Part shown: positions 985 through 33,239 of the stretch, piece by piece
Layout: each line of letters starts with the position of its first letter
Position numbering within the stretch: position 1 is the stretch's first letter
Origin: a virus
Taxonomy: Duplodnaviria > Caudoviricetes
IMG/VR virus record: IMGVR_UViG_3300042539_001740
DNA length: 64,000 nucleotides
Direction: 5' to 3' (one strand)
Made by a program: the position numbers and the translations under genes
The notes under the pieces: generated by a model
What the model was told of the DNA's origin: nothing
What the model saw: the letters and a program-made list of their open reading frames with translations, nothing else
Databases searched by the model: none

Positions 985-3108
985 ATGTCAATCAAGGTTA
1001 AAATTTCTATTTACTTTTCAGTTTTAATTATGTCAATTTTCTTTATAATGAAGATGATTTCATTATTTTTTATAAATGACGCACTACAATTAATCAAAAT
1101 AATTGAATTATCTTGTTTTATTGTTTTTTTACCATTCTTTTCAATCTTGGTAAAAGAATATACTAATAAATTAAAACATAATATAAAATTAACACAATAC
1201 TCCAAAAAACTTAACAAAGTTCTTATATCACAATCACACAATTCATTATTTTATCAAGGAAATGTAAAGGATGGGGCAAAAACTTTAACAAAGGAAGTAA
1301 CAGAATCAATTGATGCTGATAGATGTTCAATTTGGTTATATAATTCAGATAAAACCTCAATTATCTGTCAACAACTTTATATTAAAAAAGAAGATGAATG
1401 GTATAGTGGGGCGGAAATGTATAAAAAAGATTTTATCGCCTATTTTGAACACTTAGAAATCAATCCGATTATTATTGCAAACAATGCTGAAACTCATACC
1501 GCAACATATTGTTTTGTTGAAGGGTATTTGAAACCCCTTGGTATTAAATCTATGTTGGATGTTCCAATTATGTACAGAGGCGATGTAATTGGTGTTGTGT
1601 GTATTGAGAGTAAAACATTAAGGGAATGGATTGGATTAGAAGTTAACTTTGCTCAAATGTTATCATCACTATATTCTTTTGCTTATTCGGTTAAAGAAAG
1701 TAATATTTTGAGAGGTAATTTACAAGAGTTCGAAAAGTTTGTTGATACATCTGTTTTGGTTTCTAAAGCGGACAATAAAGGTAGAATAACATATGTAAAT
1801 AAAAAGTTTGAGGAAGTATCTGGATGGTCTTTAGATGAAGTAAGAGGAAAAGACCATAGTATTGTTAATTCGGGTAAACATCCCAAGGAGTTTTGGGCTA
1901 ATATGTACAAAGATGTTGTCGTTGAGAAAAAGATTTGGAATGAGATTGTTACAAATAGGGATAAAAATGGTAACTTATATTGGGTTGATTCATATATAAA
2001 AGGTGATTTTGATGAAAATGGTAAGTTTTTGGGGTATATGTCAATCAGATATGATGTAACAGAAGTCAAGAAAAAAGAAATTGATATAAAAAATAGGATG
2101 AATGCTATTAATACATCGAATATGGTTATTGAGTTTGATTTGGATGGTAAAATTATGTTTGCTAATAGTTTATTCTGTGAAAAAATGGGTTATGAAGAAA
2201 AAGAATTAAAAGGTAAACATCATAAGATTTTTGTTTCAAAGGAATATTCAAAATCTCCTGAATATAAAGAGTTTTGGAAATTGTTAAAAAGTGGAGAATA
2301 TGTTACTGATGAGTTTTTAAGGTTTACTAAAGATAAAAACAAAGTTTGGATTCAAGCTTCATATAATCCTGTATTTGATATAGATGGTAAAGTACAAAGA
2401 GTAATGAAAATTGCAACAGATATAACTGATAGAATTACACAATCAATAGAAATTGAGAAAAAGAACACTTATTTAGAACACGCAGCAAAGATTCTAAGAC
2501 ACGATATGCACTCAGGTATTAACACATACATACCTAGGGGAGTTAGTTCATTAGAACGAAGATTAACTATTGAACAAATAGAGGAGTTAAAAATAACAGC
2601 ACCATTTAAAATGATTAAAGATGGGTTGAGCCATGCTCAAAAAGTTTATAAAGGTGTTTATGAATTTACAAACTTAGTAAAAAAAGATGTTGTATTAAAT
2701 AAAACAGAATGTAATCTAAAAAGTATTTTAGAAAGTTACTTAACAACAACCTCATACAAAAGTCAGGTTCATATCGAGGAATTAATAACTAAAGATGTGA
2801 ATGAGTCATTGTTTTGTACATCAATTGATAATCTGATAAGAAATGGTTTGAAATATAACGATTCTGATACGAAATTTGTTAAAATATTTATGGAGGGGGA
2901 TTTGTTAATAATACAAGATAATGGTAGAGGAATCACTCAACAAGATTTCGACCATTTATCAAAACCATATACAAGAAAAGAAGGACAAAAAGAGAGTGGT
3001 ACAGGATTAGGGTTAAATATTTGTGTTGCAATTTTAGAAGAACACGGATTTGAAATTACATGTGAAAAAAATGATATTGGTACTAAAATGAAAATAAACA
3101 TAAAATAA
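985..3108 (+). CDS. Sensor histidine kinase (2 TM - GAF - PAS/PAC - PAS/PAC - HisKA-like - HATPase_c)
   Basis: GAF (DADRCSIWLYN...SMLDVPI); two PAS (ITYVNKKFEEVSGW; FANSLFCEKMGY...WIQASYNPV); H-box-like ILRHDMH; N box NLIRNGLKYN; G boxes DNGRGI and GTGLGL. Confidence 0.9.
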   Translation: MSIKVKISIYFSVLIMSIFFIMKMISLFFINDALQLIKIIELSCFIVFLPFFSILVKEYTNKLKHNIKLTQYSKKLNKVLISQSHNSLFYQGNVKDGAKTLTKEVTESIDADRCSIWLYNSDKTSIICQQLYIKKEDEWYSGAEMYKKDFIAYFEHLEINPIIIANNAETHTATYCFVEGYLKPLGIKSMLDVPIMYRGDVIGVVCIESKTLREWIGLEVNFAQMLSSLYSFAYSVKESNILRGNLQEFEKFVDTSVLVSKADNKGRITYVNKKFEEVSGWSLDEVRGKDHSIVNSGKHPKEFWANMYKDVVVEKKIWNEIVTNRDKNGNLYWVDSYIKGDFDENGKFLGYMSIRYDVTEVKKKEIDIKNRMNAINTSNMVIEFDLDGKIMFANSLFCEKMGYEEKELKGKHHKIFVSKEYSKSPEYKEFWKLLKSGEYVTDEFLRFTKDKNKVWIQASYNPVFDIDGKVQRVMKIATDITDRITQSIEIEKKNTYLEHAAKILRHDMHSGINTYIPRGVSSLERRLTIEQIEELKITAPFKMIKDGLSHAQKVYKGVYEFTNLVKKDVVLNKTECNLKSILESYLTTTSYKSQVHIEELITKDVNESLFCTSIDNLIRNGLKYNDSDTKFVKIFMEGDLLIIQDNGRGITQQDFDHLSKPYTRKEGQKESGTGLGLNICVAILEEHGFEITCEKNDIGTKMKINIK

Positions 3109-3122
3109 AAAAAAAACAAAAA

Positions 3123-3557
3123 ATGATTGATTCGTTAATGTTGGTAGATGATGAGGACTTGTTCCATTTAGTTTTTGAAGACGCTTGTTCTTTATTAGAT
3201 ATTAGTTTATCACTAAAATCATTGAATAGTTCTGATGAAGCCGCTAAACTTTTTCAAAAATGGTTGGGTGGTGATTATTCAGATAGACCTGAGTGTGTAT
3301 TTGTTGATTTAAATATAATTGGTTCTTCCTTTGATGGTATAGAATTGATTAGAAAGATTAACTTTGAGTATGGTAATAATGTGGTTATAGGGATTATATC
3401 CTCATCTAATGAACCTGAAGAACAAGCTAAAGCTGTTCAAGCTGGCGCACAATTTTGGATTATAAAATCTGATGATATCGAACCTAGATTAGAAGAATTC
3501 AAAAAAGATTATGAAGGCTATAAAAAAAGAACTGCCTCATTTAAGGTGTATAAATAA
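3123..3557 (+). CDS. Stand-alone response regulator receiver (CheY-like)
   Basis: LMLVDDE acidic pocket, VFVDLN phospho-Asp, SSS, AGAQFWIIK; no output domain. Confidence 0.9.
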   Translation: MIDSLMLVDDEDLFHLVFEDACSLLDISLSLKSLNSSDEAAKLFQKWLGGDYSDRPECVFVDLNIIGSSFDGIELIRKINFEYGNNVVIGIISSSNEPEEQAKAVQAGAQFWIIKSDDIEPRLEEFKKDYEGYKKRTASFKVYK

Positions 3558-4234
3558 TGAAATTTAATAAGGAAACAAAACAAGAGTTAATAGAATTACT
3601 CGAAAAGAAAAATATTGGTTTAGAAGGTAATATTTTGAAGATTATTGACTCTTCAGATGACCCTGATTTTGCTAAATATGTTGAGAATTGTAAGGATAAA
3701 GATAAAGAAACAAGAAAAAAAAGGTTAGAAATAACAAAACAAGTTCAGGAAAAGAACAAAGAACTAATTGAACTCAATACTGAAAATCAAAGAATAATGG
3801 ATGAACTCCAAGTTTCTTTGAAAGAGGTTGAGGAGGCAAAAATGACTTTCGAAGTTCAAAATAGAGAGTTACTTGCTTGGCAACAAGACAACCAAAGAAT
3901 GAGTGTGGAACTTCAACAAGAGATGGCCAAGTCAGAATTAGCAAGAATCCAAGCAGAAGAAGCCAAAACTGCAGCGGTTAATGATTTGGATGTTCTACAA
4001 AAGAAAAAACAAACCGAATTAATTGGTAACATCGTGAGAATTGCATTAGGTGTTATTATATCTATCGGTATTATAACCACATTTATGTATATTTTGGCTT
4101 TAGTAATAAACAAAGATACACAAATGATTGGTTCTACTTGGTCAAATATGTTAGGTATATTATTAACTAACGCATTTAGTATAATCGGTACAATAATGGG
4201 GGTTAAATACTCAGGAAAAGAGGAAAAAGAATAA
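3557..4234 (+). CDS. Coiled-coil protein with two C-terminal TM helices, translationally coupled to the receiver gene
   Basis: TAATG stop/start overlap; long heptad region; hydrophobic IALGVIISIGIITTFMYILAL and MLGILLTNAFSIIGTIMGV. Confidence 0.7.
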   Translation: MKFNKETKQELIELLEKKNIGLEGNILKIIDSSDDPDFAKYVENCKDKDKETRKKRLEITKQVQEKNKELIELNTENQRIMDELQVSLKEVEEAKMTFEVQNRELLAWQQDNQRMSVELQQEMAKSELARIQAEEAKTAAVNDLDVLQKKKQTELIGNIVRIALGVIISIGIITTFMYILALVINKDTQMIGSTWSNMLGILLTNAFSIIGTIMGVKYSGKEEKE

Positions 4235-4246
4235 AAAAAAGGGGGT

Positions 4247-4432
4247 CTATTTCGACCCCTTTTTTAATTTACTAAACTTAGCTTCCCCTTTATAAACATT
4301 TTCCACTTCATAGGCATTTCTACCCAATTTTTTGTCATATTTCCATATTTGGATGATATCTCCGTGGTCTATAACAACTTCTGATTTGGTATCTTGTGTC
4401 ATTTGAGGTTCAGGGTTTAGTTTTTTCGCCAT
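4247..4432 (-). CDS. Hypothetical protein
   Basis: 61-aa ORF starting 3 nt after the stop of the upstream minus-strand gene. Confidence 0.6.
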   Translation of the reverse strand: MAKKLNPEPQMTQDTKSEVVIDHGDIIQIWKYDKKLGRNAYEVENVYKGEAKFSKLKKGSK

Positions 4433-4434
4433 AA

Positions 4435-5268
4435 TTAAATGATTGCTTCAGTAAGTTTTTTTGTAAGATTCAATTCATAAGCTCTTGCCAATCTTGTAAG
4501 GCCACAACCCCATCCAAATCTTGGGAAGAAATCCAAAGATAAGAAATGTTCCAATTCTTTTTCTACTCTTTCCTTACCAAATAATTCAAAAAGTTTTGCT
4601 GAGTAGTTCCCACCTTCGATTGTGTAGAACATTTCTTTCATACTTTCTTTATCACAACTTCTTTCAGCAGAACCGATTGTTTCTTGACCGAAAAGGATAA
4701 CATCAACCTTTTGGAATTTGTCACCTTCACCCTTTTGCATATTCCAAAAAGGATTTGTTCTCAATGGGAAGTTTTGAAGTGAGATAGAATCACCGATTTC
4801 ATTCCACATTTTTGTTTCGTGTTCAGCTTCAAGGATTTCAGTTCCGTATTTTTCACAAAGTTCATTATAATCTACAACTATTGGAATATCAAATCCCAAA
4901 TATTCTAACATTTCCGCTTGAAGTTTAACCATATCTTCTTTAGTTCCTTTTGTTTCAACTTCGAACATAGGGAAGATTAAGTCGTGACGACCAGGGATTG
5001 GGTTTGCTTCTTGTCTGTATGATGTGGAGATACAATATACACCAGGAAATTCAGGATTTAGAAGTAATTCATATTCCAACCACATTTGACCTGTTTGTGG
5101 TAAAGGCCAAATTTCACCTGAATATTCAAATTTTGTGATGCTATGTGGATTTTCACAAGCGGCAAGGATTGAAAGTCTAGATTGTGTTGGAACCTCCAAG
5201 AAACCTTTGGCTTGGAAAAAGTTTCTCATCTTTTGTACTAACTCGTTGTAGATTTGTGTGTTTTTCAT
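4435..5268 (-). CDS. Class IIb aaRS catalytic-domain-only protein (AsnRS/AspRS-like; possible archaeal-type asparagine synthetase)
   Basis: Motif 1 (FFQAKGFLEVPT), motif 2 (SYRQE...RHDLIFPMFEVE), motif 3 (GWGCGLTRL); no OB-fold anticodon domain; Asn-rich leader upstream. Confidence 0.8.
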   Translation of the reverse strand: MKNTQIYNELVQKMRNFFQAKGFLEVPTQSRLSILAACENPHSITKFEYSGEIWPLPQTGQMWLEYELLLNPEFPGVYCISTSYRQEANPIPGRHDLIFPMFEVETKGTKEDMVKLQAEMLEYLGFDIPIVVDYNELCEKYGTEILEAEHETKMWNEIGDSISLQNFPLRTNPFWNMQKGEGDKFQKVDVILFGQETIGSAERSCDKESMKEMFYTIEGGNYSAKLFELFGKERVEKELEHFLSLDFFPRFGWGCGLTRLARAYELNLTKKLTEAII

Positions 5269-5298
5269 TTTTGTTATTAATTTTGTTTATTGGTTTAT

Positions 5299-5328
5299 AA
5301 AAAAAAGCCCCCTAATAATAAGGGGGTT
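5299..5328 (-). terminator. Attenuator-type intrinsic terminator between the Asn leader and the AsnRS-like gene
   Basis: Minus strand reads AACCCCCT-TATTATT-AGGGGGC-T8. Confidence 0.8.
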
Positions 5329-5333
5329 ATGAA

Positions 5334-5369
5334 TTAAAAATTGTATATGTTGTTTAGATTGATGTCCAT
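5334..5369 (-). CDS. Putative Asn-rich leader peptide MDINLNNIYNF
   Basis: ATG GAC ATC AAT CTA AAC AAC ATA TAC AAT TTT TAA; 4 of 11 codons Asn; TATTTAT motif at 5386-5392 upstream and a terminator 5 nt downstream. Confidence 0.7.
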   Translation of the reverse strand: MDINLNNIYNF

Positions 5370-5449
5370 TTTTTTTCTTTTAGGAATAAATACGATAAGA
5401 TTTTAGAAAAATCAATTTTTTTATAAAAATAATAAAAAAAATTATGTTT

Positions 5450-5475
5450 TGTCATTAAAACTGACAATTTGTCAG
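5450..5475. promoter_or_regulatory. TGACA-N3-TGTCA palindromic operator upstream of dnaK
   Basis: TGTCAttaaaaCTGACAattTGTCAG; same palindrome at 45756-45768. Confidence 0.6.
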
Positions 5476-5574
5476 GTTAAAAAGGTTTGGATTAATTTTT
5501 TATAACAAATGTTTGTGAGTAGAATTGACTACATAAAAAATAAACAATATAATTCAAACAAAAACGAACAAAAT

Positions 5575-7440
5575 ATGAGTAAAATTATTGGAATCGATTT
5601 AGGGACTACAAACTCGTGTGTAGCCGTAATGGAAAATGGAGAACCAATTGTAATAACAAACAATGAAGGTAAAAGAACAACCCCTTCAATCATTGGATTT
5701 GTTGACAATGGTGAAAGAAAGATTGGAGACCCAGCAAAAAGACAAGCTGTAACCAATCCTGACAAAACAATTTATTCAATCAAACGCTTTATGGGCTCAA
5801 ATTATGACGAAACCAAGTCAGAGGTTAAGAGAGTTCCTTATAAGGTCGTAAAAGGGAAAAACAACACCCCAAGAGTAGAGATTGATGATAAACAATTCTC
5901 ACCTCAAGAAATCTCAGCAATGGTGTTACAGAAAATGAAACAAACTGCTGAAGATTATTTGGGTCAAGAAGTAACTGAAGCCGTTATCACAGTTCCTGCT
6001 TACTTCAATGATGCTCAAAGACAAGCAACAAAAGAAGCTGGTGAGATTGCGGGTCTGAAAGTTAAGAGAATTATCAATGAACCAACTGCAGCTGCTCTTG
6101 CTTATGGTCTTGATAAGAAAAACAAGGACTCTAAAATCGTTGTTTTTGACTGTGGTGGGGGTACACACGATGTATCTGTACTAGAATTAGGTGGTGGTGT
6201 ATTTGAAGTATTATCAACCGATGGTGATACACACTTAGGTGGTGATGACTTTGACAATGCTATTTCTGATTGGTTAAAAAACGAGTTCAAAAATGAGAAC
6301 AATGGTGCTTGGAATGATGATTCTATGGCAATCCAAAGGTTAAGAGAGGCAGCTGAGAAGGCAAAAATTGAATTATCTTCATCTCAAAGTACTGAAATTA
6401 ACTTACCTTACTTTATGGTAATTGATAATCAACCAAAACACCTTGTAAAAACACTTACAAGAGCAAAGTTTGAACAAATTATTGATAAATTGGTTGAAAG
6501 AACGATTGCACCTTGTAAATCAGCTCTTAAAAACGCTGGATTGACAATTAATGACATTGATGAGGTTATTTTGGTTGGTGGTTCTACTAGAATCCCTGCA
6601 ATTCAAGAAGCAGTTAAGAAGTTTTTCGGAAAAGAAGCGTCAAAAGGTGTAAATCCTGACGAAGTTGTTGCTTTGGGTGCTGCGATTCAAGGTGGTGTAT
6701 TAGCTGGTGATGTAAAAGATGTTCTTTTATTGGATGTTACCCCACTTTCATTAGGAATTGAGACAATGGGTGGTGTAATGACAAGATTAATCGAAGCAAA
6801 TACAACAATTCCAACCAAAAAGTCACAAATCTTCTCAACTGCGGTAGATAATCAACCTTCTGTTGAAATTCACGTAATACAAGGTGAAAGACCAATGGCA
6901 AAAGACAACAGAACTATTGGTAGATTCCATTTAGATGGTATTCCACCATCAATGAGAGGTATTCCTCAAATCGAAGTTACTTTTGACATCGATGCAAATG
7001 GTATTATCAATGTTTCGGCCTTAGACAAGGGAACAAACAAACAACAAACGATTAGAATTGAGTCATCATCTGGACTTTCACAAGAAGAAATCGACAGAAT
7101 GAAGAGAGAAGCTGAGGAAAATGCTGAAAGTGATAAATTAGCTAAAGAAAAAGCTGAAAAAATCAATGAGGCTGATAGTACAATCTTTAATATTGAGAAA
7201 ACTTTGAAGGATTTGGATGAAAAAATCTCTGATGAACACAAAGAAGAAGTTAAAAAAGGTTTGGAGGAATTAAAAGAGGCTAAAAACACTGGTGAAATTG
7301 AAAAAATTGACCCTGCGTTAGATAATGTTAATTCAATTATGCAAAAAATTACCCAAGAACTTTATAGTAATGTGAGTGAACAAACTGAAAACACTGATGG
7401 TTTTACAGGTTCAGATGTAGAGTTTGAAGAAGTAAAGTAA
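5575..7440 (+). CDS. dnaK: Chaperone DnaK (Hsp70)
   Basis: [50 protein letters not shown]; likely start 5575 rather than 5509. Confidence 0.98.
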
Positions 7441-27150: not shown

Positions 27151-27630
27151 ATGAAAACGAAAACACCATACATATCATCATCAGTCGCCATCAAAGGGAT
27201 TGCAGAATCGAAGTTAGCTCAAAGTGAGAAAGACGATTGTGTCGTCAGAGCCTTTGCTTCAGCGTTTGGAGTTACTTACGACTACGCTCACAAAAAAGTG
27301 GCAGAGGTTTTTGGTAGAAAAAATAGACAAGGGACTGCACTCTTTGGTTTAACTATGAATGCACTTGCGTCAAAACAGATAAAGTTCAATCGTAAAGGTG
27401 TTACACCAATTAGAGAAGATATTCAAATGGCATATTGGGTTGAGGTGAAAGGAAGAAATGTTTTGAGAAATATGACAACAGCTAAGTTCTTGGAAAAGTA
27501 TTCAAAAGGAACTTACATTGTTACAATCAAGGGTCATGCTTTCACAATCAAAGATGGAGTTGTAATTGGAAACACAGAAGATGCACTACAGAGAAAAAAA
27601 GTTATCTATGGTGCTTGGAAAATTGGATAA
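27151..27630 (+). CDS. Hypothetical protein with Cys...His pair (papain-like fold possible)
   Basis: DDCVVRAFASAFG; GHAFTIKDGVV. Confidence 0.6.
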   Translation: MKTKTPYISSSVAIKGIAESKLAQSEKDDCVVRAFASAFGVTYDYAHKKVAEVFGRKNRQGTALFGLTMNALASKQIKFNRKGVTPIREDIQMAYWVEVKGRNVLRNMTTAKFLEKYSKGTYIVTIKGHAFTIKDGVVIGNTEDALQRKKVIYGAWKIG

Positions 27631-27683
27631 GATTGTTTAACTTTGTAAAGTTCATTGACATAGAGGGAAGAATTAATACAAAA

Positions 27684-27760
27684 GAGCTATTGGTGTAGGG
27701 GTTTAACATTTCAGCTTGTCACGCTGAAGACCAGGGGTTCGAATCCCCTATAGCTCGCCA
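27684..27760 (+). tRNA. tRNA-Asp(GUC)
   Basis: TCAGC-ttGTCac-GCTGA; encoded CCA. Confidence 0.93.
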
Positions 27761-27768
27761 ACAAATAT

Positions 27769-27840
27769 GGCCCGTTCGTATAATGGTTAGTACTCCAGAT
27801 TTTCATTCTGGCAATAGGGTTTCGACTACCCTACGGGCTA
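27769..27840 (+). tRNA. tRNA-Glu(UUC)
   Basis: CCAGA-ttTTCat-TCTGG. Confidence 0.92.
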
Positions 27841-27848
27841 CAAATATA

Positions 27849-27920
27849 TGCAAAGAAGTGTAGTGGTTGCACATTGGGCTCATAACCCAAAGGTAAAAGG
27901 TTCGATTCCTTTCTTTGCGT
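27849..27920 (+). tRNA. tRNA-fMet(CAU), initiator-like
   Basis: TTGGG-ctCATaa-CCCAA (three G-C pairs); weak 1:72 pair. Confidence 0.85.
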
Positions 27921-27929
27921 CAAACACAA

Positions 27930-28004
27930 TGCAGGATGGACTGGAAGTGGTTCCAGCTCGGTCTCATAAGCCGTACCATACGGGTTCGACTCCCGTTCCT
28001 GCAT
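27930..28004 (+). tRNA. tRNA-Met(CAU), elongator-like
   Basis: CGGT-ctCATaa-GCCG; TGCAGGA/TCCTGCA. Confidence 0.85.
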
Positions 28005-28015
28005 CAATTTATAAT

Positions 28016-28100
28016 GGGAGTGCGCCGAAGCTGGAGAGTCGGGGATGACTGTAAATCATTTGCATTAGCTGAGGGGGTTCGAATCCCTCCATTCCCACCA
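28016..28100 (+). tRNA. tRNA-Tyr(GUA)
   Basis: GATGA-ctGTAaa-TCATT; long variable arm; CCA. Confidence 0.93.
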
Positions 28101-28116
28101 CAAAAAAAGAAAAACT

Positions 28117-28638
28117 ATGAATAGAACGCCAAACAAAAGTGGTGGGGGTGCAAACACAAATGTTAACGGATTACATTTTGAAGCTACAACACACCTAAAA
28201 AAATTGTTAGTGGAACAAAGTGATTATGTGATGGATAATCAAGACCAAATTGTAAAAAATGGTATAATTGTCGGTGAATATTTTGAGAAATATGGTCTGT
28301 ACAAAAAATTGTTAAGTAGATATAATATTGACCACAATACGATTATCAGTAAAAAACTTTTACCTGATGCTGCAATATTAGTGGGGAATACCATCTACAT
28401 AATTGAAAAGAAATACCAAAATGGTGCCGGTTCTGTTGATGAGAAATTACAAACTTGTAATTTCAAAAAAAGACAATATAAAAAATTGTTTAGTCCAATC
28501 GGTATCCAAGTTGAGTACTATTATGTCTTAAGTAATTTTTTCAATAAAGATTGTTATAAGGATGTTTTTGAATATATAACAGATGTTGGTTGTAAATATT
28601 TCTTTGAGGTTTTACCTTTGGAGGAAATTGGGTTATAA
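28117..28638 (+). CDS. PD-(D/E)XK restriction-endonuclease-like protein
   Basis: LLPDAAIL...YIIEKKYQ...GSVDEKLQT. Confidence 0.7.
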   Translation: MNRTPNKSGGGANTNVNGLHFEATTHLKKLLVEQSDYVMDNQDQIVKNGIIVGEYFEKYGLYKKLLSRYNIDHNTIISKKLLPDAAILVGNTIYIIEKKYQNGAGSVDEKLQTCNFKKRQYKKLFSPIGIQVEYYYVLSNFFNKDCYKDVFEYITDVGCKYFFEVLPLEEIGL

Positions 28639-28646
28639 ATAAAAAT

Positions 28647-28724
28647 GGGGGCACATGTACCAAGACTTGGCGATGGATATTTGCAATATCTGTGAGGTGA
28701 GTTTGATTCTCACTGTCTCCACCA
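28647..28724 (+). tRNA. tRNA-Ala(UGC), T-loop TTTGATT
   Basis: GGATA-ttTGCaa-TATCT; G3:U70; CCA. Confidence 0.88.
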
Positions 28725-28737
28725 AAAAAATTGTTTT

Positions 28738-29334
28738 ATGAAGAAAATTAGTTTATTATTGTTATGTGTTATTTTATTAACTTCCTTTTCAACCCCACCT
28801 TTGAGGGTATTATTCATCGGTGATAGTTTAACTTGTTATACTGGTGGTTGGCAAGATATGGTAGCCAAGGAATTCGGTTATCAGAGTTTAAATAAATCAA
28901 GTGGTGGAAAGAGAACGGATTGGATGAGATTAACACTTAACGACCATTTGAAGAGAGATTCAATGTTTACCAGTGTGTTTATTTATGGGGGTTGTAATGA
29001 TGCTTTTTCTTATGTGAACTTACAGGGTGCCGTTAATAATATACAGATGATGGTTGATTCTTGTAATAGGAGGGGGATTAAACCGATTGTTATTGTTGGA
29101 TATGACCCCATCAAAGTTATGGTTAGAACTGTATATGGTACTGAGACCACTGATAGATGTAGAGCAAGGTATGTTGAATTTCAAAAATTGATGGTTGACC
29201 CAAAGACAGGTTTGAAAAATTGTCTTATAATTCCAAAGGATACATCTGTAACATTCAAAGATGCTGGTGATGGGGTTCATGTAAGTTTATCAGGACAAAA
29301 GAAGTTTGCGGATTGGGTAATTAAACATTTATGA
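28738..29334 (+). CDS. Secreted SGNH/GDSL hydrolase
   Basis: Signal peptide; FIGDSLT; GGCND; DGVH. Confidence 0.85.
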   Translation: MKKISLLLLCVILLTSFSTPPLRVLFIGDSLTCYTGGWQDMVAKEFGYQSLNKSSGGKRTDWMRLTLNDHLKRDSMFTSVFIYGGCNDAFSYVNLQGAVNNIQMMVDSCNRRGIKPIVIVGYDPIKVMVRTVYGTETTDRCRARYVEFQKLMVDPKTGLKNCLIIPKDTSVTFKDAGDGVHVSLSGQKKFADWVIKHL

Positions 29335-29579
29335 AAAAATATATTATAATTGGTATCGCATCATTTGTTATTGAGTTGGCCGCAACTATGTATATTGCAA
29401 CGGTTGCTGATAGAGATTTTATGATGATTTTTTGGGCTTGTATCGGGCCATTTTTGGGATTACCATTTGTTGGTTATATGGTTGAATCAAAGAATTGGAA
29501 TGAAAGAATCAAGATGGCCTTGGCATCCAGTATTGGTTATACTTTGGGTTCATTATTAATTTATTTGTTAAAAGTTTAA
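29331..29579 (+). CDS. Membrane protein
   Basis: Three hydrophobic helices. Confidence 0.6.
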   Translation: MKKYIIIGIASFVIELAATMYIATVADRDFMMIFWACIGPFLGLPFVGYMVESKNWNERIKMALASSIGYTLGSLLIYLLKV

Positions 29580-29581
29580 AG

Positions 29582-29854
29582 ATGAAATATTTAATTCCTT
29601 GTTTGTTTTTATTTTTTGTTTCATTTGTTTTATTAGCTTCAATTCTAAATAGAACAAACTATAATGAAATTGAAGATGGGGATATTGTTAAAAGATGTGT
29701 TATAGACACATTTTATGTTACAGAATCACCATCCACCATTGAATATGGGAAAAGATATCATTATTCAACAGATTGTGATGAGTTTGTTATAACCAAGAGA
29801 AATGATGTTTATAAGATTGGTGATACAATAACTTATGTTTATAAAAAGCGATAG
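29582..29854 (+). CDS. Hypothetical exported protein; stop codon lies inside tRNA-Gly
   Basis: N-terminal TM; TAG at 29852-29854. Confidence 0.6.
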   Translation: MKYLIPCLFLFFVSFVLLASILNRTNYNEIEDGDIVKRCVIDTFYVTESPSTIEYGKRYHYSTDCDEFVITKRNDVYKIGDTITYVYKKR

Positions 29855-29923
29855 TAGCTCAGTAGGTAGAGCATAATCTTGCCAAGATTAAAGTCGCAAG
29901 TTCGAATCTTGTCTATCGCTCCA
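29848..29923 (+). tRNA. tRNA-Gly(GCC)
   Basis: TAATC-ttGCCaa-GATTA; CCA. Confidence 0.93.
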
Positions 29924-29925
29924 TA

Positions 29926-30015
29926 AGGGACTCCCGTTTTAAGGTGAAGGACACACGGGCAGGTTATTGTAAAATAACTAAAAAACCTTAAGTCTATGGG
30001 TGGAAGTCCCTACCA
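29926..30015 (+). ncRNA. tRNA-sized RNA with acceptor-like stem and encoded ACCA end but no D/T loops
   Basis: AGGGACT/AGTCCCT-A-CCA; inner CCCGT/ACGGG, GGTTATT/AATAACT, TTAAGGT/ACCTTAA. Confidence 0.5.
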
Positions 30016-30028
30016 CCCAATTATAAAT

Positions 30029-30103
30029 GCCGGTAAAGCATAAGTGGTGATGTACTTGACTTGTAATCAAGATAATGGGGTTCGATTCCTCATACCGGCT
30101 CCA
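30029..30103 (+). tRNA. tRNA-Thr(UGU)
   Basis: CTTGA-ctTGTaa-TCAAG; CCA. Confidence 0.93.
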
Positions 30104-30120
30104 CTTTTTATTCAAATACT

Positions 30121-30351
30121 ATGGAATCACTTATGGAACAAATAAGATTGTCTCAGTTTAAGAACCTCAAAAATGGGGATAAAATCCATATCAAATCTCG
30201 TAATGGTATTTATACCTTTCTCAAAAAGGATAAATGGACAGGAGAAATCTATATAACTTGTAATAGGTGGAAATATGAAGAAAACCCTATAAGAGTTACA
30301 AGTTACAATGACTTCAAGTGTTTTGCTGGTGGTATTTGGAATCTAAGGTAA
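30121..30351 (+). CDS. Hypothetical protein
   Basis: ORF between tRNAs. Confidence 0.6.
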   Translation: MESLMEQIRLSQFKNLKNGDKIHIKSRNGIYTFLKKDKWTGEIYITCNRWKYEENPIRVTSYNDFKCFAGGIWNLR

Positions 30352-30355
30352 ATTA

Positions 30356-30426
30356 GCGGGTATAGCATAAAAGTAATGTTCTAGTCTTCCAAACTAGATA
30401 AGTTGGGGCGGTACCAACTATCCGCT
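30356..30426 (+). tRNA. tRNA-Gly(UCC), atypical T-loop GGCGGTA
   Basis: CTAGT-ctTCCaa-ACTAG; GTTGG/CCAAC T-stem. Confidence 0.85.
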
Positions 30427-30510
30427 CAAATATTTTCCCAAAAATATTCATCAAAGGTTGTGTAATTAAAAATCTATTTCTATATTTGTGAACACTTAAA
30501 CGGAAACACA

Positions 30511-30738
30511 ATGGCAAAAGAGAAAAAAACAATCCAAGTTCAAGAAATAAAAGATTATGCTAACTTGGTACTCAGTAACACCAATATATCTTTGGATGAA
30601 AAAATGGGGGTTATTACAATGATTGAACATATCTTACATAAATCTAATGCTTACAATGGTTTTATGTTTTTATCTCTACCTAATGGTAATGCTCCTGAGT
30701 TTTATACATATGAATGGGCGACAAGAAAATATTTCTAA
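30511..30738 (+). CDS. Hypothetical protein
   Basis: Follows the TATATTTG promoter at 30481. Confidence 0.65.
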   Translation: MAKEKKTIQVQEIKDYANLVLSNTNISLDEKMGVITMIEHILHKSNAYNGFMFLSLPNGNAPEFYTYEWATRKYF

Positions 30739-30741
30739 TGG

Positions 30742-30823
30742 TTGTGACACCTAATAATTCACAAGTAGTGGCTGACACTTAGATTGTTGCCTGACGTTAA
30801 GGTTTTGAATAGGAAAACCGAAA
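30742..30823 (+). ncRNA. Candidate structured RNA with GGTTTT-GAATAGG-AAAACC-GAAA module
   Basis: TTGTGA/TCACAA hairpin; module shared with 31851-31877. Confidence 0.4.
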
Positions 30824-30838
30824 AGTTTAAACAAACAA

Positions 30839-30919
30839 AGTCAGGTGGCAGAATTGGAGCTGCCAAGATGAGGTACACATCTGCGTTTATCGTCACAAGT
30901 TCGAATCCTGTCCTGACTA
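30839..30919 (+). tRNA. Aberrant tRNA-like RNA (Tyr-like GUA in loop AGGUACA, no U33)
   Basis: AGTCAGG/CCTGACT, GCAG/CTGC, AGATG/CATCT, T-loop TTCGAAT. Confidence 0.6.
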
Positions 30920-30951
30920 CTAACTTATTTAAAAAAATAAAAATTATAAAT

Positions 30952-31332
30952 ATGGAAAATATAATTTTAGAAGTAGGTAAAACTTACAAGAGTAGAGATG
31001 GTAGATTAGTAAAAATTATCAAGGGTAATCCACCAATAGAAGGGAAAAGAGATGGATGGGATGGAATTTATTTTGGTAAAAGCATTGACAATAAAAAACC
31101 AAAAATAGACCATGAAAGATATGTTTTTGATGGAAAGTGGTGGTCTTATATTTCTGACTTTTCAATGTTTGGTTATCAAGAATTATCTGACCCAGAAATG
31201 GATTTGGTGGAAGTCGTAAAAACAAAAGAAAAAAAAATAAAAGAAAAAAAAGGAAAAGAAAAAAATAAAAAAAAAAGAAAAAAAAAATTGACAAAAATTA
31301 ATATAAATAAAAGTTTACAACAATGGCACTAA
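30952..31332 (+). CDS. Hypothetical protein; 3' end runs into a low-complexity A tract
   Basis: MENIILEVGKTYKSRDG; likely start 30952 rather than 30784. Confidence 0.55.
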   Translation: MENIILEVGKTYKSRDGRLVKIIKGNPPIEGKRDGWDGIYFGKSIDNKKPKIDHERYVFDGKWWSYISDFSMFGYQELSDPEMDLVEVVKTKEKKIKEKKGKEKNKKKRKKKLTKININKSLQQWH

Positions 31333-31583
31333 TATATCTTATAGTAGATAGGGAAGATAAAATCCCAGTACTAACTGCAACGACAGTTGAAAAGGTCAAA
31401 CAACTCTTGGATGAGTATATGGGATTACCACCCTACTTTGAAGATAAGGATGTTGAATACTTGGGTTATTTTCCTTATGATAGTAGTTATCCCGACATAT
31501 ATGAGGGAACTTACAAGTATAGATATGGTGATGAAATACAAGAGTTCGGTTTGTATTGTATGGAAATAGATGCACTGAATTAA
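31323..31583 (+). CDS. Hypothetical protein
   Basis: Acidic, Tyr-rich ORF. Confidence 0.6.
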   Translation: MALIYLIVDREDKIPVLTATTVEKVKQLLDEYMGLPPYFEDKDVEYLGYFPYDSSYPDIYEGTYKYRYGDEIQEFGLYCMEIDALN

Positions 31584-31588
31584 AATTT

Positions 31589-31695
31589 AGCCAGGTGGCG
31601 GAATGGTAGACGCTATATGTTTTGGAAGGAGATAGGAATAGAACCTACCCTAAACCAGATAAAAGATTTTACAGGTTCGAATCCTGTCCTGACTA
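31589..31695 (+). tRNA. Aberrant Leu-like tRNA with greatly extended anticodon arm (loop AAUAGAA)
   Basis: Leu-type D arm GTGGCGGAATGGTAGACGC; ~50-nt arm tipped by TAGG-aaTAGaa-CCTA; 3' end identical to the 30839 RNA. Confidence 0.6.
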
Positions 31696-31696
31696 C

Positions 31697-31908
31697 AATG
31701 AGTAAGAGATACTCAGCAGTCTTTGGTTCAAGACTCATTTAACAATGAACTCGTTCAAATCGGACAACGGAATGCCGATTCTTAGGGTTAAAGGCGGCAG
31801 CACACCCCCTCCTTCGTATGTGTGACTTTTTTCAGTGGGGATGCCCAACAGGTTTTTTGAATAGGAAAAAACCGAAATAACTACTCACCAGTAATCTCAA
31901 GGTGGGGA
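31697..31908 (+). ncRNA. ~210-nt multi-hairpin RNA with possible pseudoknot
   Basis: AATGAGT/ACTCATT, AGTCTT/AAGACT, AATCGG/CCGATT, CACAC/GTGTG with CCCC-GGGG, GAATAGG hairpin, CACC/GGTG; no ORF. Confidence 0.55.
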
Positions 31909-31914
31909 AATTAT

Positions 31915-31988
31915 GCACCCATAGCTCAGCTGGATAGAGCAACTGCCTTCTAAGCAGTAGGTCTTTGGTTCGAATCCAAATGGGTGTA
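31915..31988 (+). tRNA. tRNA-Arg(UCU)
   Basis: ACTGC-ctTCTaa-GCAGT. Confidence 0.93.
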
Positions 31989-32002
31989 CTAAAACAAAAA
32001 TT

Positions 32003-32407
32003 ATGAAAAAAACGATTTTATTTCTATTATTATTTTTACCATTTTTAACATTTGCACAACTAGGTTTATCTCCCCAACAAATTGAAAAAAATCTAGGTAC
32101 AAATCACAAAACCGAATTCATTGATGGATTAAAGATTTTTACTTATTATTATGATATTGTGTATATGGACGAGAAACAATTGGAAAGTTATGGGTTCATT
32201 TTTGTTGAAAGTAATGGGGTAGAATATTGTGCAAATTGGAGTGTTTACAGACCAATCAAGATGTTAAACAAATCTTATAAAGATTTGGAGCCATATGTGA
32301 AAGTTGGTGAAAATGTTTGGGTTGATTATGTTACTGGTTCAAGGATGGAATTAAAAATAAATAGGAGTGAGGGTTTTCATTCAATACATGTTAATTATTT
32401 AAAATAG
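32003..32407 (+). CDS. Exported hypothetical protein
   Basis: Signal peptide MKKTILFLLLFLPFLTFA-Q. Confidence 0.7.
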   Translation: MKKTILFLLLFLPFLTFAQLGLSPQQIEKNLGTNHKTEFIDGLKIFTYYYDIVYMDEKQLESYGFIFVESNGVEYCANWSVYRPIKMLNKSYKDLEPYVKVGENVWVDYVTGSRMELKINRSEGFHSIHVNYLK

Positions 32408-32413
32408 AAAAAA

Positions 32414-32590
32414 ATGAAGTTCAAAGTAGGAGACAAGGTTTACAAACCAAAAGGGTATAAGTTCCCTGGTATCGTAGTGGCGGTATTTCAAACCACATCA
32501 GGTGAAACAAGAATTGTTGCTGAATTAATCGACAATGGAATGTTGCACATATTTAGTGAGAGTCAGTTGGAACTTGACATTAACAATTAA
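32414..32590 (+). CDS. Small SH3-like protein (58 aa, not in the ORF track)
   Basis: MKFKVGDKVYKPKGYKFPGIVVAVF. Confidence 0.65.
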   Translation: MKFKVGDKVYKPKGYKFPGIVVAVFQTTSGETRIVAELIDNGMLHIFSESQLELDINN

Positions 32591-32606
32591 AAAAATTAAA
32601 GTTGTG

Positions 32607-32849
32607 ATGAAAAACACCCCCATTCAAAATGTTATAGCAAAGTTAGAAAAACTTGTCAGAGAGTCCGAGGTTGGTACTGAGGAAAAACGGAAATTAAACT
32701 TGGCGATATCTTATCTTTGGGATGAGTTAGATAATGAAAGAAAAACGATGGTTGAAATTTTCGACCTAAGTAAACGAGAACATCCAACTCAAGTAACAGG
32801 TAAAATGTGGGTAAATAAACATTTTATGGATTATCAAAAATTTTTATGA
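32607..32849 (+). CDS. Hypothetical protein
   Basis: Likely start MKNTPIQ at 32607. Confidence 0.55.
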   Translation: MKNTPIQNVIAKLEKLVRESEVGTEEKRKLNLAISYLWDELDNERKTMVEIFDLSKREHPTQVTGKMWVNKHFMDYQKFL

Positions 32850-32981
32850 TGGAGAACAAGAATCAAGGAAAAAGTGAAGAACAAGTTAAGTTTTCTTTAC
32901 AGATGTTTGCAGGTACGATGTTAGCTTTAATTGTACTGGGTTTGGTATATCTCATTAAGTTGGGATTTGGTTTGTAATGTA

Positions 32982-33066
32982 GGTCGGGTGGTGAAATTGG
33001 TATCCACGCAACACTTAAACCGTTGTGGTCAGTAAGACCTTATGAGTTCGAGTCTCATCCCGACTA
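32982..33066 (+). tRNA. tRNA-Leu(UAA)
   Basis: CAAC(a)-ctTAAac-(c)GTTG; long variable arm GGTC-agtaa-GACC. Confidence 0.88.
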
Positions 33067-33073
33067 CAAAAAT

Positions 33074-33150
33074 ACCCCCTTGGCGGAATAGGTAGACGCG
33101 CATCATTTAGGATGATGTTTTGATTGAGAGTTCGATTCTCTCAGGGGGTA
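33074..33150 (+). tRNA. tRNA-Leu(UAG), short variable region
   Basis: CATCA-ttTAGga-TGATG; Leu-type D arm. Confidence 0.88.
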
Positions 33151-33239
33151 CAAAAATTATCTTATGCTTTATGTAATGTTAATTGTACTATTAATATTTT
33201 ATATGTTGGGATTTTTAGATACTGACATTTAGGATATTT

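Follow-up and report, generated by a model that had tools for sequence, protein, structure and literature searches.

A putative Asn-codon attenuator ahead of an AsnRS-like gene of freshwater jumbo phages

Organization of the leader and operon

The stretch of DNA analyzed here, hereafter called the window, comprises 64,000 nucleotides (nt) of a virus of the class Caudoviricetes (Duplodnaviria; IMG/VR record IMGVR_UViG_3300042539_001740) and contains, on its minus strand, a gene coding for a 277-amino acid (aa) protein that resembles the catalytic core of asparaginyl-tRNA synthetase (AsnRS). The 307-bp gap between this gene and a divergently transcribed gene for DnaK (Hsp70) holds a compact set of leader elements (Table 1), namely a putative promoter, a very short upstream open reading frame (uORF) in which 4 of the 11 codons specify Asn, and an intrinsic terminator. 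An earlier note on this DNA had listed a TATTTAT motif, the uORF MDINLNNIYNF, a terminator and a class IIb synthetase core gene in that order, and all of them are present on the minus strand. The same note placed the terminator 5 nt after the uORF stop codon; the terminator is there, but its G+C stem begins 7 nt past the stop codon, and the shorter distance is obtained only by counting two A's. Similarly, the limits that it gave for the unit (4435–5392) enclose the elements that it named but fall short of the operon, which extends beyond the enzyme gene to a conserved 61-aa ORF and a second terminator.

Table 1. Features of the leader and of the operon that it precedes (window coordinates).
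Feature	Positions	Strand	Basis and remarks
TTG, putative −33 promoter element	5413–5415	−	Read from sequence; 20 nt upstream of the TATTTATT box
TATTTATT box, putative Bacteroidota-type −7 promoter element	5385–5392	−	Read from sequence
A-rich stretch, 15 nt, after the TATTTATT box and before the uORF		−	
uORF MDINLNNIYNF plus TAA	5334–5369	−	ATG at 5369, TAA at 5336–5334; 11 codons
uORF Asn codons N4, N6, N7 and N10	5360–5358, 5354–5352, 5351–5349, 5342–5340	−	
Terminator hairpin CCCCCT/TATTATT/AGGGGG	5308–5326	−	Sequence, consensus terminator scan and fold
T8 U-tract of the putative attenuator	5299–5306	−	Sequence and consensus terminator scan; one C between hairpin and T8
A-rich spacer, 30 nt, from the U-tract to the enzyme ATG at 5268		−	
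277-aa class IIb AsnRS-like catalytic core, no anticodon-binding domain	4435–5268	−	Pfam PF00152, AlphaFold2, fold and profile matches
Conserved 61-aa ORF	4247–4432	−	Starts 2 nt past the enzyme stop codon
Operon-end terminator, hairpin 4259–4242 plus T-run	4233–4259	−	Sequence and terminator scan

About 21 terminator-like sites occur in the window. The leader terminator, located 39 nt before the enzyme gene, is the only one that has no ORF end upstream of it (2 kb checked), all others either following the end of an ORF or opposing such a site on the other strand. When positions 4100–5700 were scanned against Rfam with E values of up to 10, no family was returned; Phe_leader came closest within the leader, with 21.8 bits against a gathering score of 55. 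Metatranscriptomes were compared as assembled contigs, one of which spans positions 5219–5385, across the terminator; this is a weak hint at most, since carry-over of DNA is possible.

Conservation of the leader unit

Upstream regions were extracted from 80 related viral loci whose enzymes are 70–100% identical to that of the window, which gave 59 non-redundant leaders. In 55 of these 59, an ATG-initiated uORF of 6–30 codons ends at most 16 nt from the start of a hairpin followed by a U-tract, an arrangement found in 11.1 ± 3.1 leaders (maximum 22) when the 80-nt upstream regions are shuffled. At least eight unrelated stem sequences were recovered across the related loci (CCCCCT, TCCTCC with a UUCG loop, CCCTTC, CCTGAC, CCCCTC, CCCATCA, GGAGA and TCCCTA), and the fact that every one of them pairs reveals compensatory change. 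The uORF and the terminator make up a conserved cis-unit that belongs specifically to the enzyme gene. At more distant loci, most leaders retain the unit made of uORF and hairpin and some are devoid of it. Directly after the U-tract, many of the classes among leaders L022–L080, although their hairpins are unrelated, have TTTTTTTTGCCC in common, with a conserved GCCC; at this place the window has TTTTTTTTATAAACC.

The TATTTAT motif singled out in the earlier note corresponds to a conserved putative promoter element, as a box of this type is located 8–28 nt upstream of the uORF ATG in 44 of 49 distinct leaders. The box lies at −22 to −28 from the ATG in the class of the window and mostly at −12 to −16 in the other classes, so that in most classes the uORF is leaderless or nearly so. 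A TTG(A) element recurs about 19–20 nt upstream of the TAnnTTT box across leader classes and probably acts in the promoter as well.

Asn codons in the uORF

Codons were counted in 47 distinct uORF sequences (631 codons). Asn codons represent 146 of them (23.1%), compared to 5.8% and 6.2% when the same DNA is read in its two other frames, 6.1% in the long ORFs of the window and 6.0% in random short ORFs. Because the leaders are 50% A, their base composition alone predicts 11.8% Asn; the observed count nevertheless stands 9 standard deviations above mononucleotide shuffles (z = 9). Contrary to the expectation from composition, AAT (102 codons) is more abundant than AAA (74). AAT and AAC are favored over AAA and AAG, and Lys codons (AAA/AAG) do not exceed the expectation calculated from codon counts and base composition. 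Among 26 peptide clusters, 20 are above 11.8% Asn (binomial p = 0.005, Wilcoxon p = 5e-4), and the Asn fraction of the uORF of the window is matched by just 0.2% of random short ORFs of the window. The suggestion, made in the earlier note, of looking for Asn-rich leaders ahead of homologous phage genes thus met with a positive answer, both in the retention of the unit and in an enrichment confined to the reading frame.

Asn richness could also have arisen without any sensing of Asn, if the leader were a general sensor of transcription-translation coupling, or a constitutive damper, whose uORF owes its composition to something else, for instance a need for unstructured A-rich RNA in Shine-Dalgarno-independent initiation or for a nascent-peptide motif of the N-L-x-N kind. 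This explanation finds support in clusters that keep the architecture with 0–1 Asn codons (MITKKKFTK, MRKKTQK), in the high A content of the leaders, and in the recurrence of N-L-x-N and N-x-Y-N with synonymous codon changes, which hints at a constraint on the peptide. However, Asn reaches twice the level predicted from composition, in frame only and with no parallel enrichment of Lys, most clusters beat the composition expectation, and the regulated enzyme is tied to Asn independently, as described below. We consider an Asn-blind leader of this kind unlikely.

The transcript running from promoter to terminator might instead be an independent small RNA, for example one made of ARN-repeat protein-binding sites and a U-tail (ARN/Hfq-type), with the gene expressed from elsewhere. 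Such an RNA would agree with the compact size of the unit (70–90 nt), its AAN triplets, its hairpin and its U-tail. Yet the ATG, the open frame and the stop codon's position are kept far beyond chance, the preference for AAT and AAC over AAA and AAG does not suit it, and the distance from the U-tract to the enzyme ATG, which is 16–56 nt among related loci, leaves no space for a second promoter. Given also that no Rfam family was matched and that the metatranscriptome contig, weak hint though it is, covers the uORF, the terminator and the start of the gene, we regard this explanation as highly improbable.

Geometry of the leader and proposed mechanism

An antiterminator helix was sought by folding the leader. 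The centroid fold holds the terminator alone, its only stable structure, in agreement with the earlier note, which had seen no such helix. This absence is explained by the composition of the leader, which is 8% G and does not contain a complement to the 5′ arm of the hairpin. Positions are given here from the first G or C of the stem. Between −39 and −13, 20–51% of the codons specify Asn, with 40–51% at −30 to −22, and this share drops to 0–4% at −12 to −7. The first nt of the stop codon is found at −14 to +12 among the 47 distinct uORFs, some of which enter or cross the hairpin (L024, L027, L031 and L059), those of the L027 and L059 classes reading through it. In the window, N4 lies 34 nt upstream of the stem and the first nt of Asn10 lies 16 nt upstream of it. 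The footprint of a ribosome reaches about 12–13 nt past the first nt of the A-site codon; hence a ribosome waiting at an Asn codon would leave the stem free, and a ribosome at the end of the uORF would abut or cover it.

Measurements made in Escherichia coli bear on this geometry (Li et al. 2016, PMC4824070). The efficiency of the tR2 terminator falls from about 90% to less than 10% when the stop codon is shifted from 28 to 5 bp upstream, terminator efficiency is maximal when the distance between stop codon and terminator exceeds 30 bp, and a sequence-dependent zone lies in between, with an efficiency of 0.12 at 17 bp and 0.8 at 18 bp (PMC4824070). The repression of the terminator by the ribosome is lost once translation is uncoupled from transcription, and, by the reasoning of its authors, the hairpin can fold once 10–15 nt of RNA are free between the A site and the stem (PMC4824070). 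By analogy, these distances would fit read-through with a ribosome at the end of the uORF and termination with a ribosome stalled upstream.

The mechanism that we favor would operate as follows. Transcription would start at the Bacteroidota-type promoter a few nt before the uORF, and the first ribosome would translate the uORF close behind RNA polymerase. If the Asn codons are read fast, this ribosome would be at the end of the uORF while the polymerase makes the terminator, where it would block pairing of the 5′ arm of the hairpin, and read-through would then carry the polymerase into the AsnRS-like gene and on to the 61-aa ORF. A shortage of charged tRNA-Asn would make the ribosome halt at the first Asn codons, 13–39 nt upstream of the stem, whereupon the hairpin would fold and transcription would end. 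Expression would in this way follow the Asn-decoding capacity of the host, being on with plentiful Asn-tRNA and off when it is short, and the regulated enzyme would activate asparagine or a close analogue. Translation of the uORF, coupling of transcription to translation, the sign of control and the substrate of the enzyme are what we infer from these observations. That the leader is an Asn-codon-dependent ribosome-mediated attenuator, whichever its sign, appears quite probable to us. The narrower proposal of a single-hairpin attenuator without antiterminator, in which plentiful Asn-tRNA permits read-through and a shortage leads to termination, has in our opinion an even chance of being correct, its predicted sign being drawn from geometry alone.

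The opposite sign was put forward in the earlier note, according to which a ribosome stalled late, at Asn10, would cover the 5′ arm of the hairpin, so that a shortage of Asn-tRNA would induce the AsnRS-like gene by steric hindrance of the terminator. The regulated gene is indeed synthetase-like, and pheST sets a precedent for a leader peptide through which an amino acid controls its synthetase; moreover, the last Asn codon starts 13–17 nt before the stem in about one third of the uORFs, within the zone where termination in E. coli depends on sequence. However, a starved ribosome halts at the first hungry codon, which in the window is N4 rather than Asn10, and even at Asn10 it would stand 16 nt off. 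Across the family, the positions from which a stalled ribosome would mask the stem are just those depleted of Asn codons, which abound where stalling leaves the hairpin free, uORFs that enter or cross the hairpin would permit read-through without any stalling, and there is no antiterminator to relay a stall that occurs upstream. We therefore judge induction by late stalling to be unlikely. As the hairpin stays free when a ribosome stalls, control is probably of the reverse sign to that in the earlier note.

Several points weigh against the attenuator that we favor, in which read-through requires plentiful Asn-tRNA. Translation, termination and the response to Asn are all predictions from sequence. 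About one quarter of the peptide clusters hold 0–2 Asn codons, and part of the clade may not sense Asn. In the window, the 7 nt between stop codon and stem make static masking by a terminating ribosome borderline. Turning a synthetase-like gene off under a shortage of Asn-tRNA would also run counter to the feedback that one expects of a synthetase, of which pheST is an example. Finally, the distance rule was measured in E. coli (PMC4824070), not in a Bacteroidota host or with a phage-modified polymerase.

The AsnRS-like enzyme and its neighbor

The enzyme matches Pfam PF00152 (class II D/K/N core) alone, with 57.8 bits, and belongs to PHROG 29758, a family of unknown function. Among NCBIfam models, AsnRS ranks first, with 36.1 bits against a cut-off of 414 and 28.1 against 342.6, which is far below the curated equivalog score; AsnA (19.6 bits against 389) and EpmA (18.1 against 286.9) are below their curated scores as well. 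AlphaFold2 returned a model with a predicted local distance difference test score (pLDDT) of 96.6, in which the whole 277-aa chain corresponds to the catalytic domain. When this model was used as a Foldseek query, AsnRS catalytic domains came at the top, followed by those of aspartyl-tRNA synthetase (AspRS), and archaeal asparagine synthetase A came 40th or lower. Comparison of the family profile with the PDB gave the same order, with E values of 1.6e-15 for AsnRS, 1.4e-13 for archaeal AspRS, 7.8e-7 for the archaeal asparagine synthetase AS-AR and about 1e-4 for EpmA. Fold and profile alike place the enzyme closer to AsnRS than to archaeal asparagine synthetase. It is about 20% identical to AsnRS and has no N-terminal OB-fold anticodon-binding domain, its residue 4 falling opposite about residue 130 of AsnRS.

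Alignment with Brugia AsnRS pairs Q58-T-G-Q61-M-W-L64-E with QSSQLYLE, E103-V-E105 with E-A-E, and R203 with the arginine of GGSxR. Residues L64, E103, E105 and R203 are at least 90% conserved among 53 diverse members of the family. Where the enzyme has L64, AspRS has a Lys that we take to bind the carboxylate of the substrate; the functional roles of all these residues are assumed from AsnRS and AspRS structures. The protein looks like a class II core with an Asn-type pocket lined by AsnRS-like residues.

The label of archaeal-type asparagine synthetase, given in the earlier note, is a weaker reading, both because AS-AR is matched by the family profile far less well than AsnRS and because the AsnA score remains far below its cut-off. 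In five cellular genomes carrying the enzyme family, no match to asnS was found over the cut-off, and gatB is present in all five. As free Asn is hard to use without AsnRS, the absence of asnS argues mildly against an asparagine synthetase.

The 61-aa ORF adjoins the enzyme gene at many loci, beginning 2 nt past the stop codon in the class of the window and 11–66 nt past it in others. Its family has the motif KKWE..IW(K/R)Y(D/N)..PYEVE..YK, with invariant W30, Y32, Y41, E44, Y47 and K48, and a basic Lys-rich tail; nothing credible was matched in Pfam or PHROGs. The 61-aa protein may serve the ligase as a partner or as a substrate. Candidate reactions for the enzyme are the charging of a tRNA, the synthesis of Asn and transfer to another acceptor, and candidate acceptors are tRNA-Asn, the 61-aa protein, whose Lys48 is invariant, and other molecules.

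The family is large, with more than 8000 database matches that form 414 clusters at 50% identity (E up to 1e-10), and occurs in jumbo phages, cyanophages, bacteria of the Candidate Phyla Radiation (CPR), DPANN archaea and Rickettsiales. Homologues from metagenome-assembled genomes (L249–L328), at 50–61% identity, come from Saccharibacteria and other CPR bacteria, Dependentiae, Rickettsiales, DPANN, Chitinophagales and Weeksellaceae, and tRNA-Asn was not found adjoining the enzyme gene in them. The neighborhoods of two distant homologues differ, one containing purine and pyrimidine enzymes and the other a glycosyltransferase/radical-SAM cluster; they do not fix the reaction. A distant homologue, P0138 (L334:4001–5107), lies in a glycosyltransferase/methyltransferase/radical-SAM-SPASM cluster and is followed by a 78-aa ORF, which suggests that some members of the family act in other pathways.

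A long-arm tRNA(GUU) next to the enzyme gene in marine phages

Homologues of the enzyme in Prochlorococcus phages P-SSM7 and P-SSM2, annotated as “tRNA ligase”, and in other marine viruses share 42–52% identity with the protein of the window or with a 54%-identical relative. Within tens of nt downstream of the marine homologues (e.g. L081:2474–3364, L082:2474–3373, L091–L095 and L129–L248) lies an 85–89-nt tRNA that has a long variable arm, a tRNA-Leu-like D-arm, G73 and an anticodon loop of the form C-N-G-U-U-U-A, that is, a GUU anticodon with U37 and a variable position 33. Each of the six sequences forms all 24 pairs of the model of this tRNA, 18 of these pairs covarying. Scanning IMG/VR for the signature of the long-arm tRNA(GUU) yielded 120 loci, 95 of which leave at least 900 nt of upstream room; at every one of these 95 testable loci, the enzyme gene is directly upstream on the same strand. 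The Asn leader was not found at the marine tRNA(GUU) loci, where the enzyme and the long-arm tRNA(GUU) are a candidate private synthetase-tRNA pair.

Conversely, when the window and five related jumbo-phage records were scanned with a covariance model of the long-arm tRNA(GUU), none was detected and ordinary tRNA-Leu genes gave the best matches. Related complete phage genomes carry ordinary 72–76-nt tRNA-Asn genes. The enzyme family is tied to Asn decoding differently in the two phage lineages. Its link to Asn, which the earlier note had proposed, is supported independently by three observations, namely the top fold and profile matches to AsnRS, the AsnRS-aligned residues L64, E103 and R203, and the adjacency to tRNA(GUU) at 95 of 95 loci. 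As a whole, the assignment to Asn is supported by two independent lines of evidence.

The window itself contains an array of 21 tRNA genes at 21759–33151 on the plus strand, which covers 18 amino acids and includes none for Asn, Ser or Ala. Two tRNA-like genes on the same strand, at 30839–30920 and 31589–31696, have the common 3′ end ...GTTCGAATCCTGTCCTGACTAC. The former is called as tRNA-Tyr(GTA), yet its positions 33 and 37 are G and C, respectively; the latter, 108 nt long with a tRNA-Leu-like D-arm, is found by covariance model only, not by ARAGORN, and may contain an intron.

Origin of the window

Identical and related sequences are found on IMG/VR viral contigs, including complete records of 308–322 kb with terminal repeats, and the DNA of the window recurs in lake-water metagenomes. 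From these records, this recurrence and the 21 tRNA genes, we conclude that the window is part of a freshwater jumbo phage. The only features that point to a Bacteroidota host are the promoter pattern TTG-N19-TAnnTTT(A) and the absence of a Shine-Dalgarno sequence, and the host is probably of this phylum. Other genes near the operon, located at 985–4234 and 5509–7440 on the plus strand, code for a 707-aa GAF-PAS histidine kinase, a 144-aa protein with a receiver domain and the full-length DnaK/Hsp70.

Discussion

Leader peptides that sense an amino acid are textbook regulators in bacteria. Like trpL, hisL, pheL and pheM (pheST), the leader described here combines a short ORF rich in one amino acid, a terminator and a gene tied to that amino acid; unlike them, it lacks the alternative helices 1:2, 2:3 and 3:4, and its sign of control is probably opposite. 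To our knowledge, no Asn-sensing leader-peptide family is known, and none is known to be encoded by a phage; a full-text literature search likewise found no leader peptide that senses Asn or is phage-encoded.

The closest parallels in architecture are the pyrBI and pyrE (rph-pyrE) operons of E. coli. They share with the leader of the window a single intrinsic terminator without antiterminator and a leader ORF that ends just before the hairpin or crosses it. In these operons, read-through needs a ribosome close behind the polymerase, as also reported by Li et al. (2016, PMC4824070), and the same is proposed here. The signals would differ, since in pyrBI and pyrE the polymerase slows at low UTP, whereas here the run of Asn codons would slow the ribosome; the codon bias points to ribosome speed, rather than nucleotide-dependent pausing of the polymerase, as the probable signal. 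The present unit also differs in being phage-borne and in having a leaderless or near-leaderless uORF.

As for the enzyme, it shares with AsnRS, itself of class IIb, the fold of the catalytic core, motifs 1–3 and the residues aligned with QLYLE, E-x-E and GGSxR, but not the N-terminal OB-fold domain that binds the anticodon in AsnRS. AS-AR (PDB 3P8T/3REU) and EpmA (PoxA/GenX) are, like the enzyme, stand-alone class IIb cores (about 290–325 aa) without anticodon domain, yet they are more distant from it than AsnRS or AspRS. The system is best filed as a phage-borne, Asn-specific variant of ribosome-mediated attenuation, ahead of an uncharacterised AsnRS-like family.

Put together, these observations suggest a broader picture, which we hold tentatively and with more doubt than confidence. 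In jumbo phages of freshwater Bacteroidota, an undescribed antiterminator-free Asn leader would read the Asn-decoding capacity of the host and gate a “headless” AsnRS, and in marine phages the same family would be privately paired with a tRNA-Leu-shaped tRNA(GUU). If this is true, phages run their own Asn-decoding module, tuned by a cis-acting sensor in some lineages and by a dedicated tRNA in others. The minimal design of the leader, with one hairpin and a leaderless or near-leaderless uORF, would provide a clean natural test of the effect of ribosome position on intrinsic termination. The association with tRNA(GUU) points to a natural orthogonal synthetase-tRNA pair, and through the leader a large protein family, as yet uncharacterised, gains a clue to its function, namely Asn.

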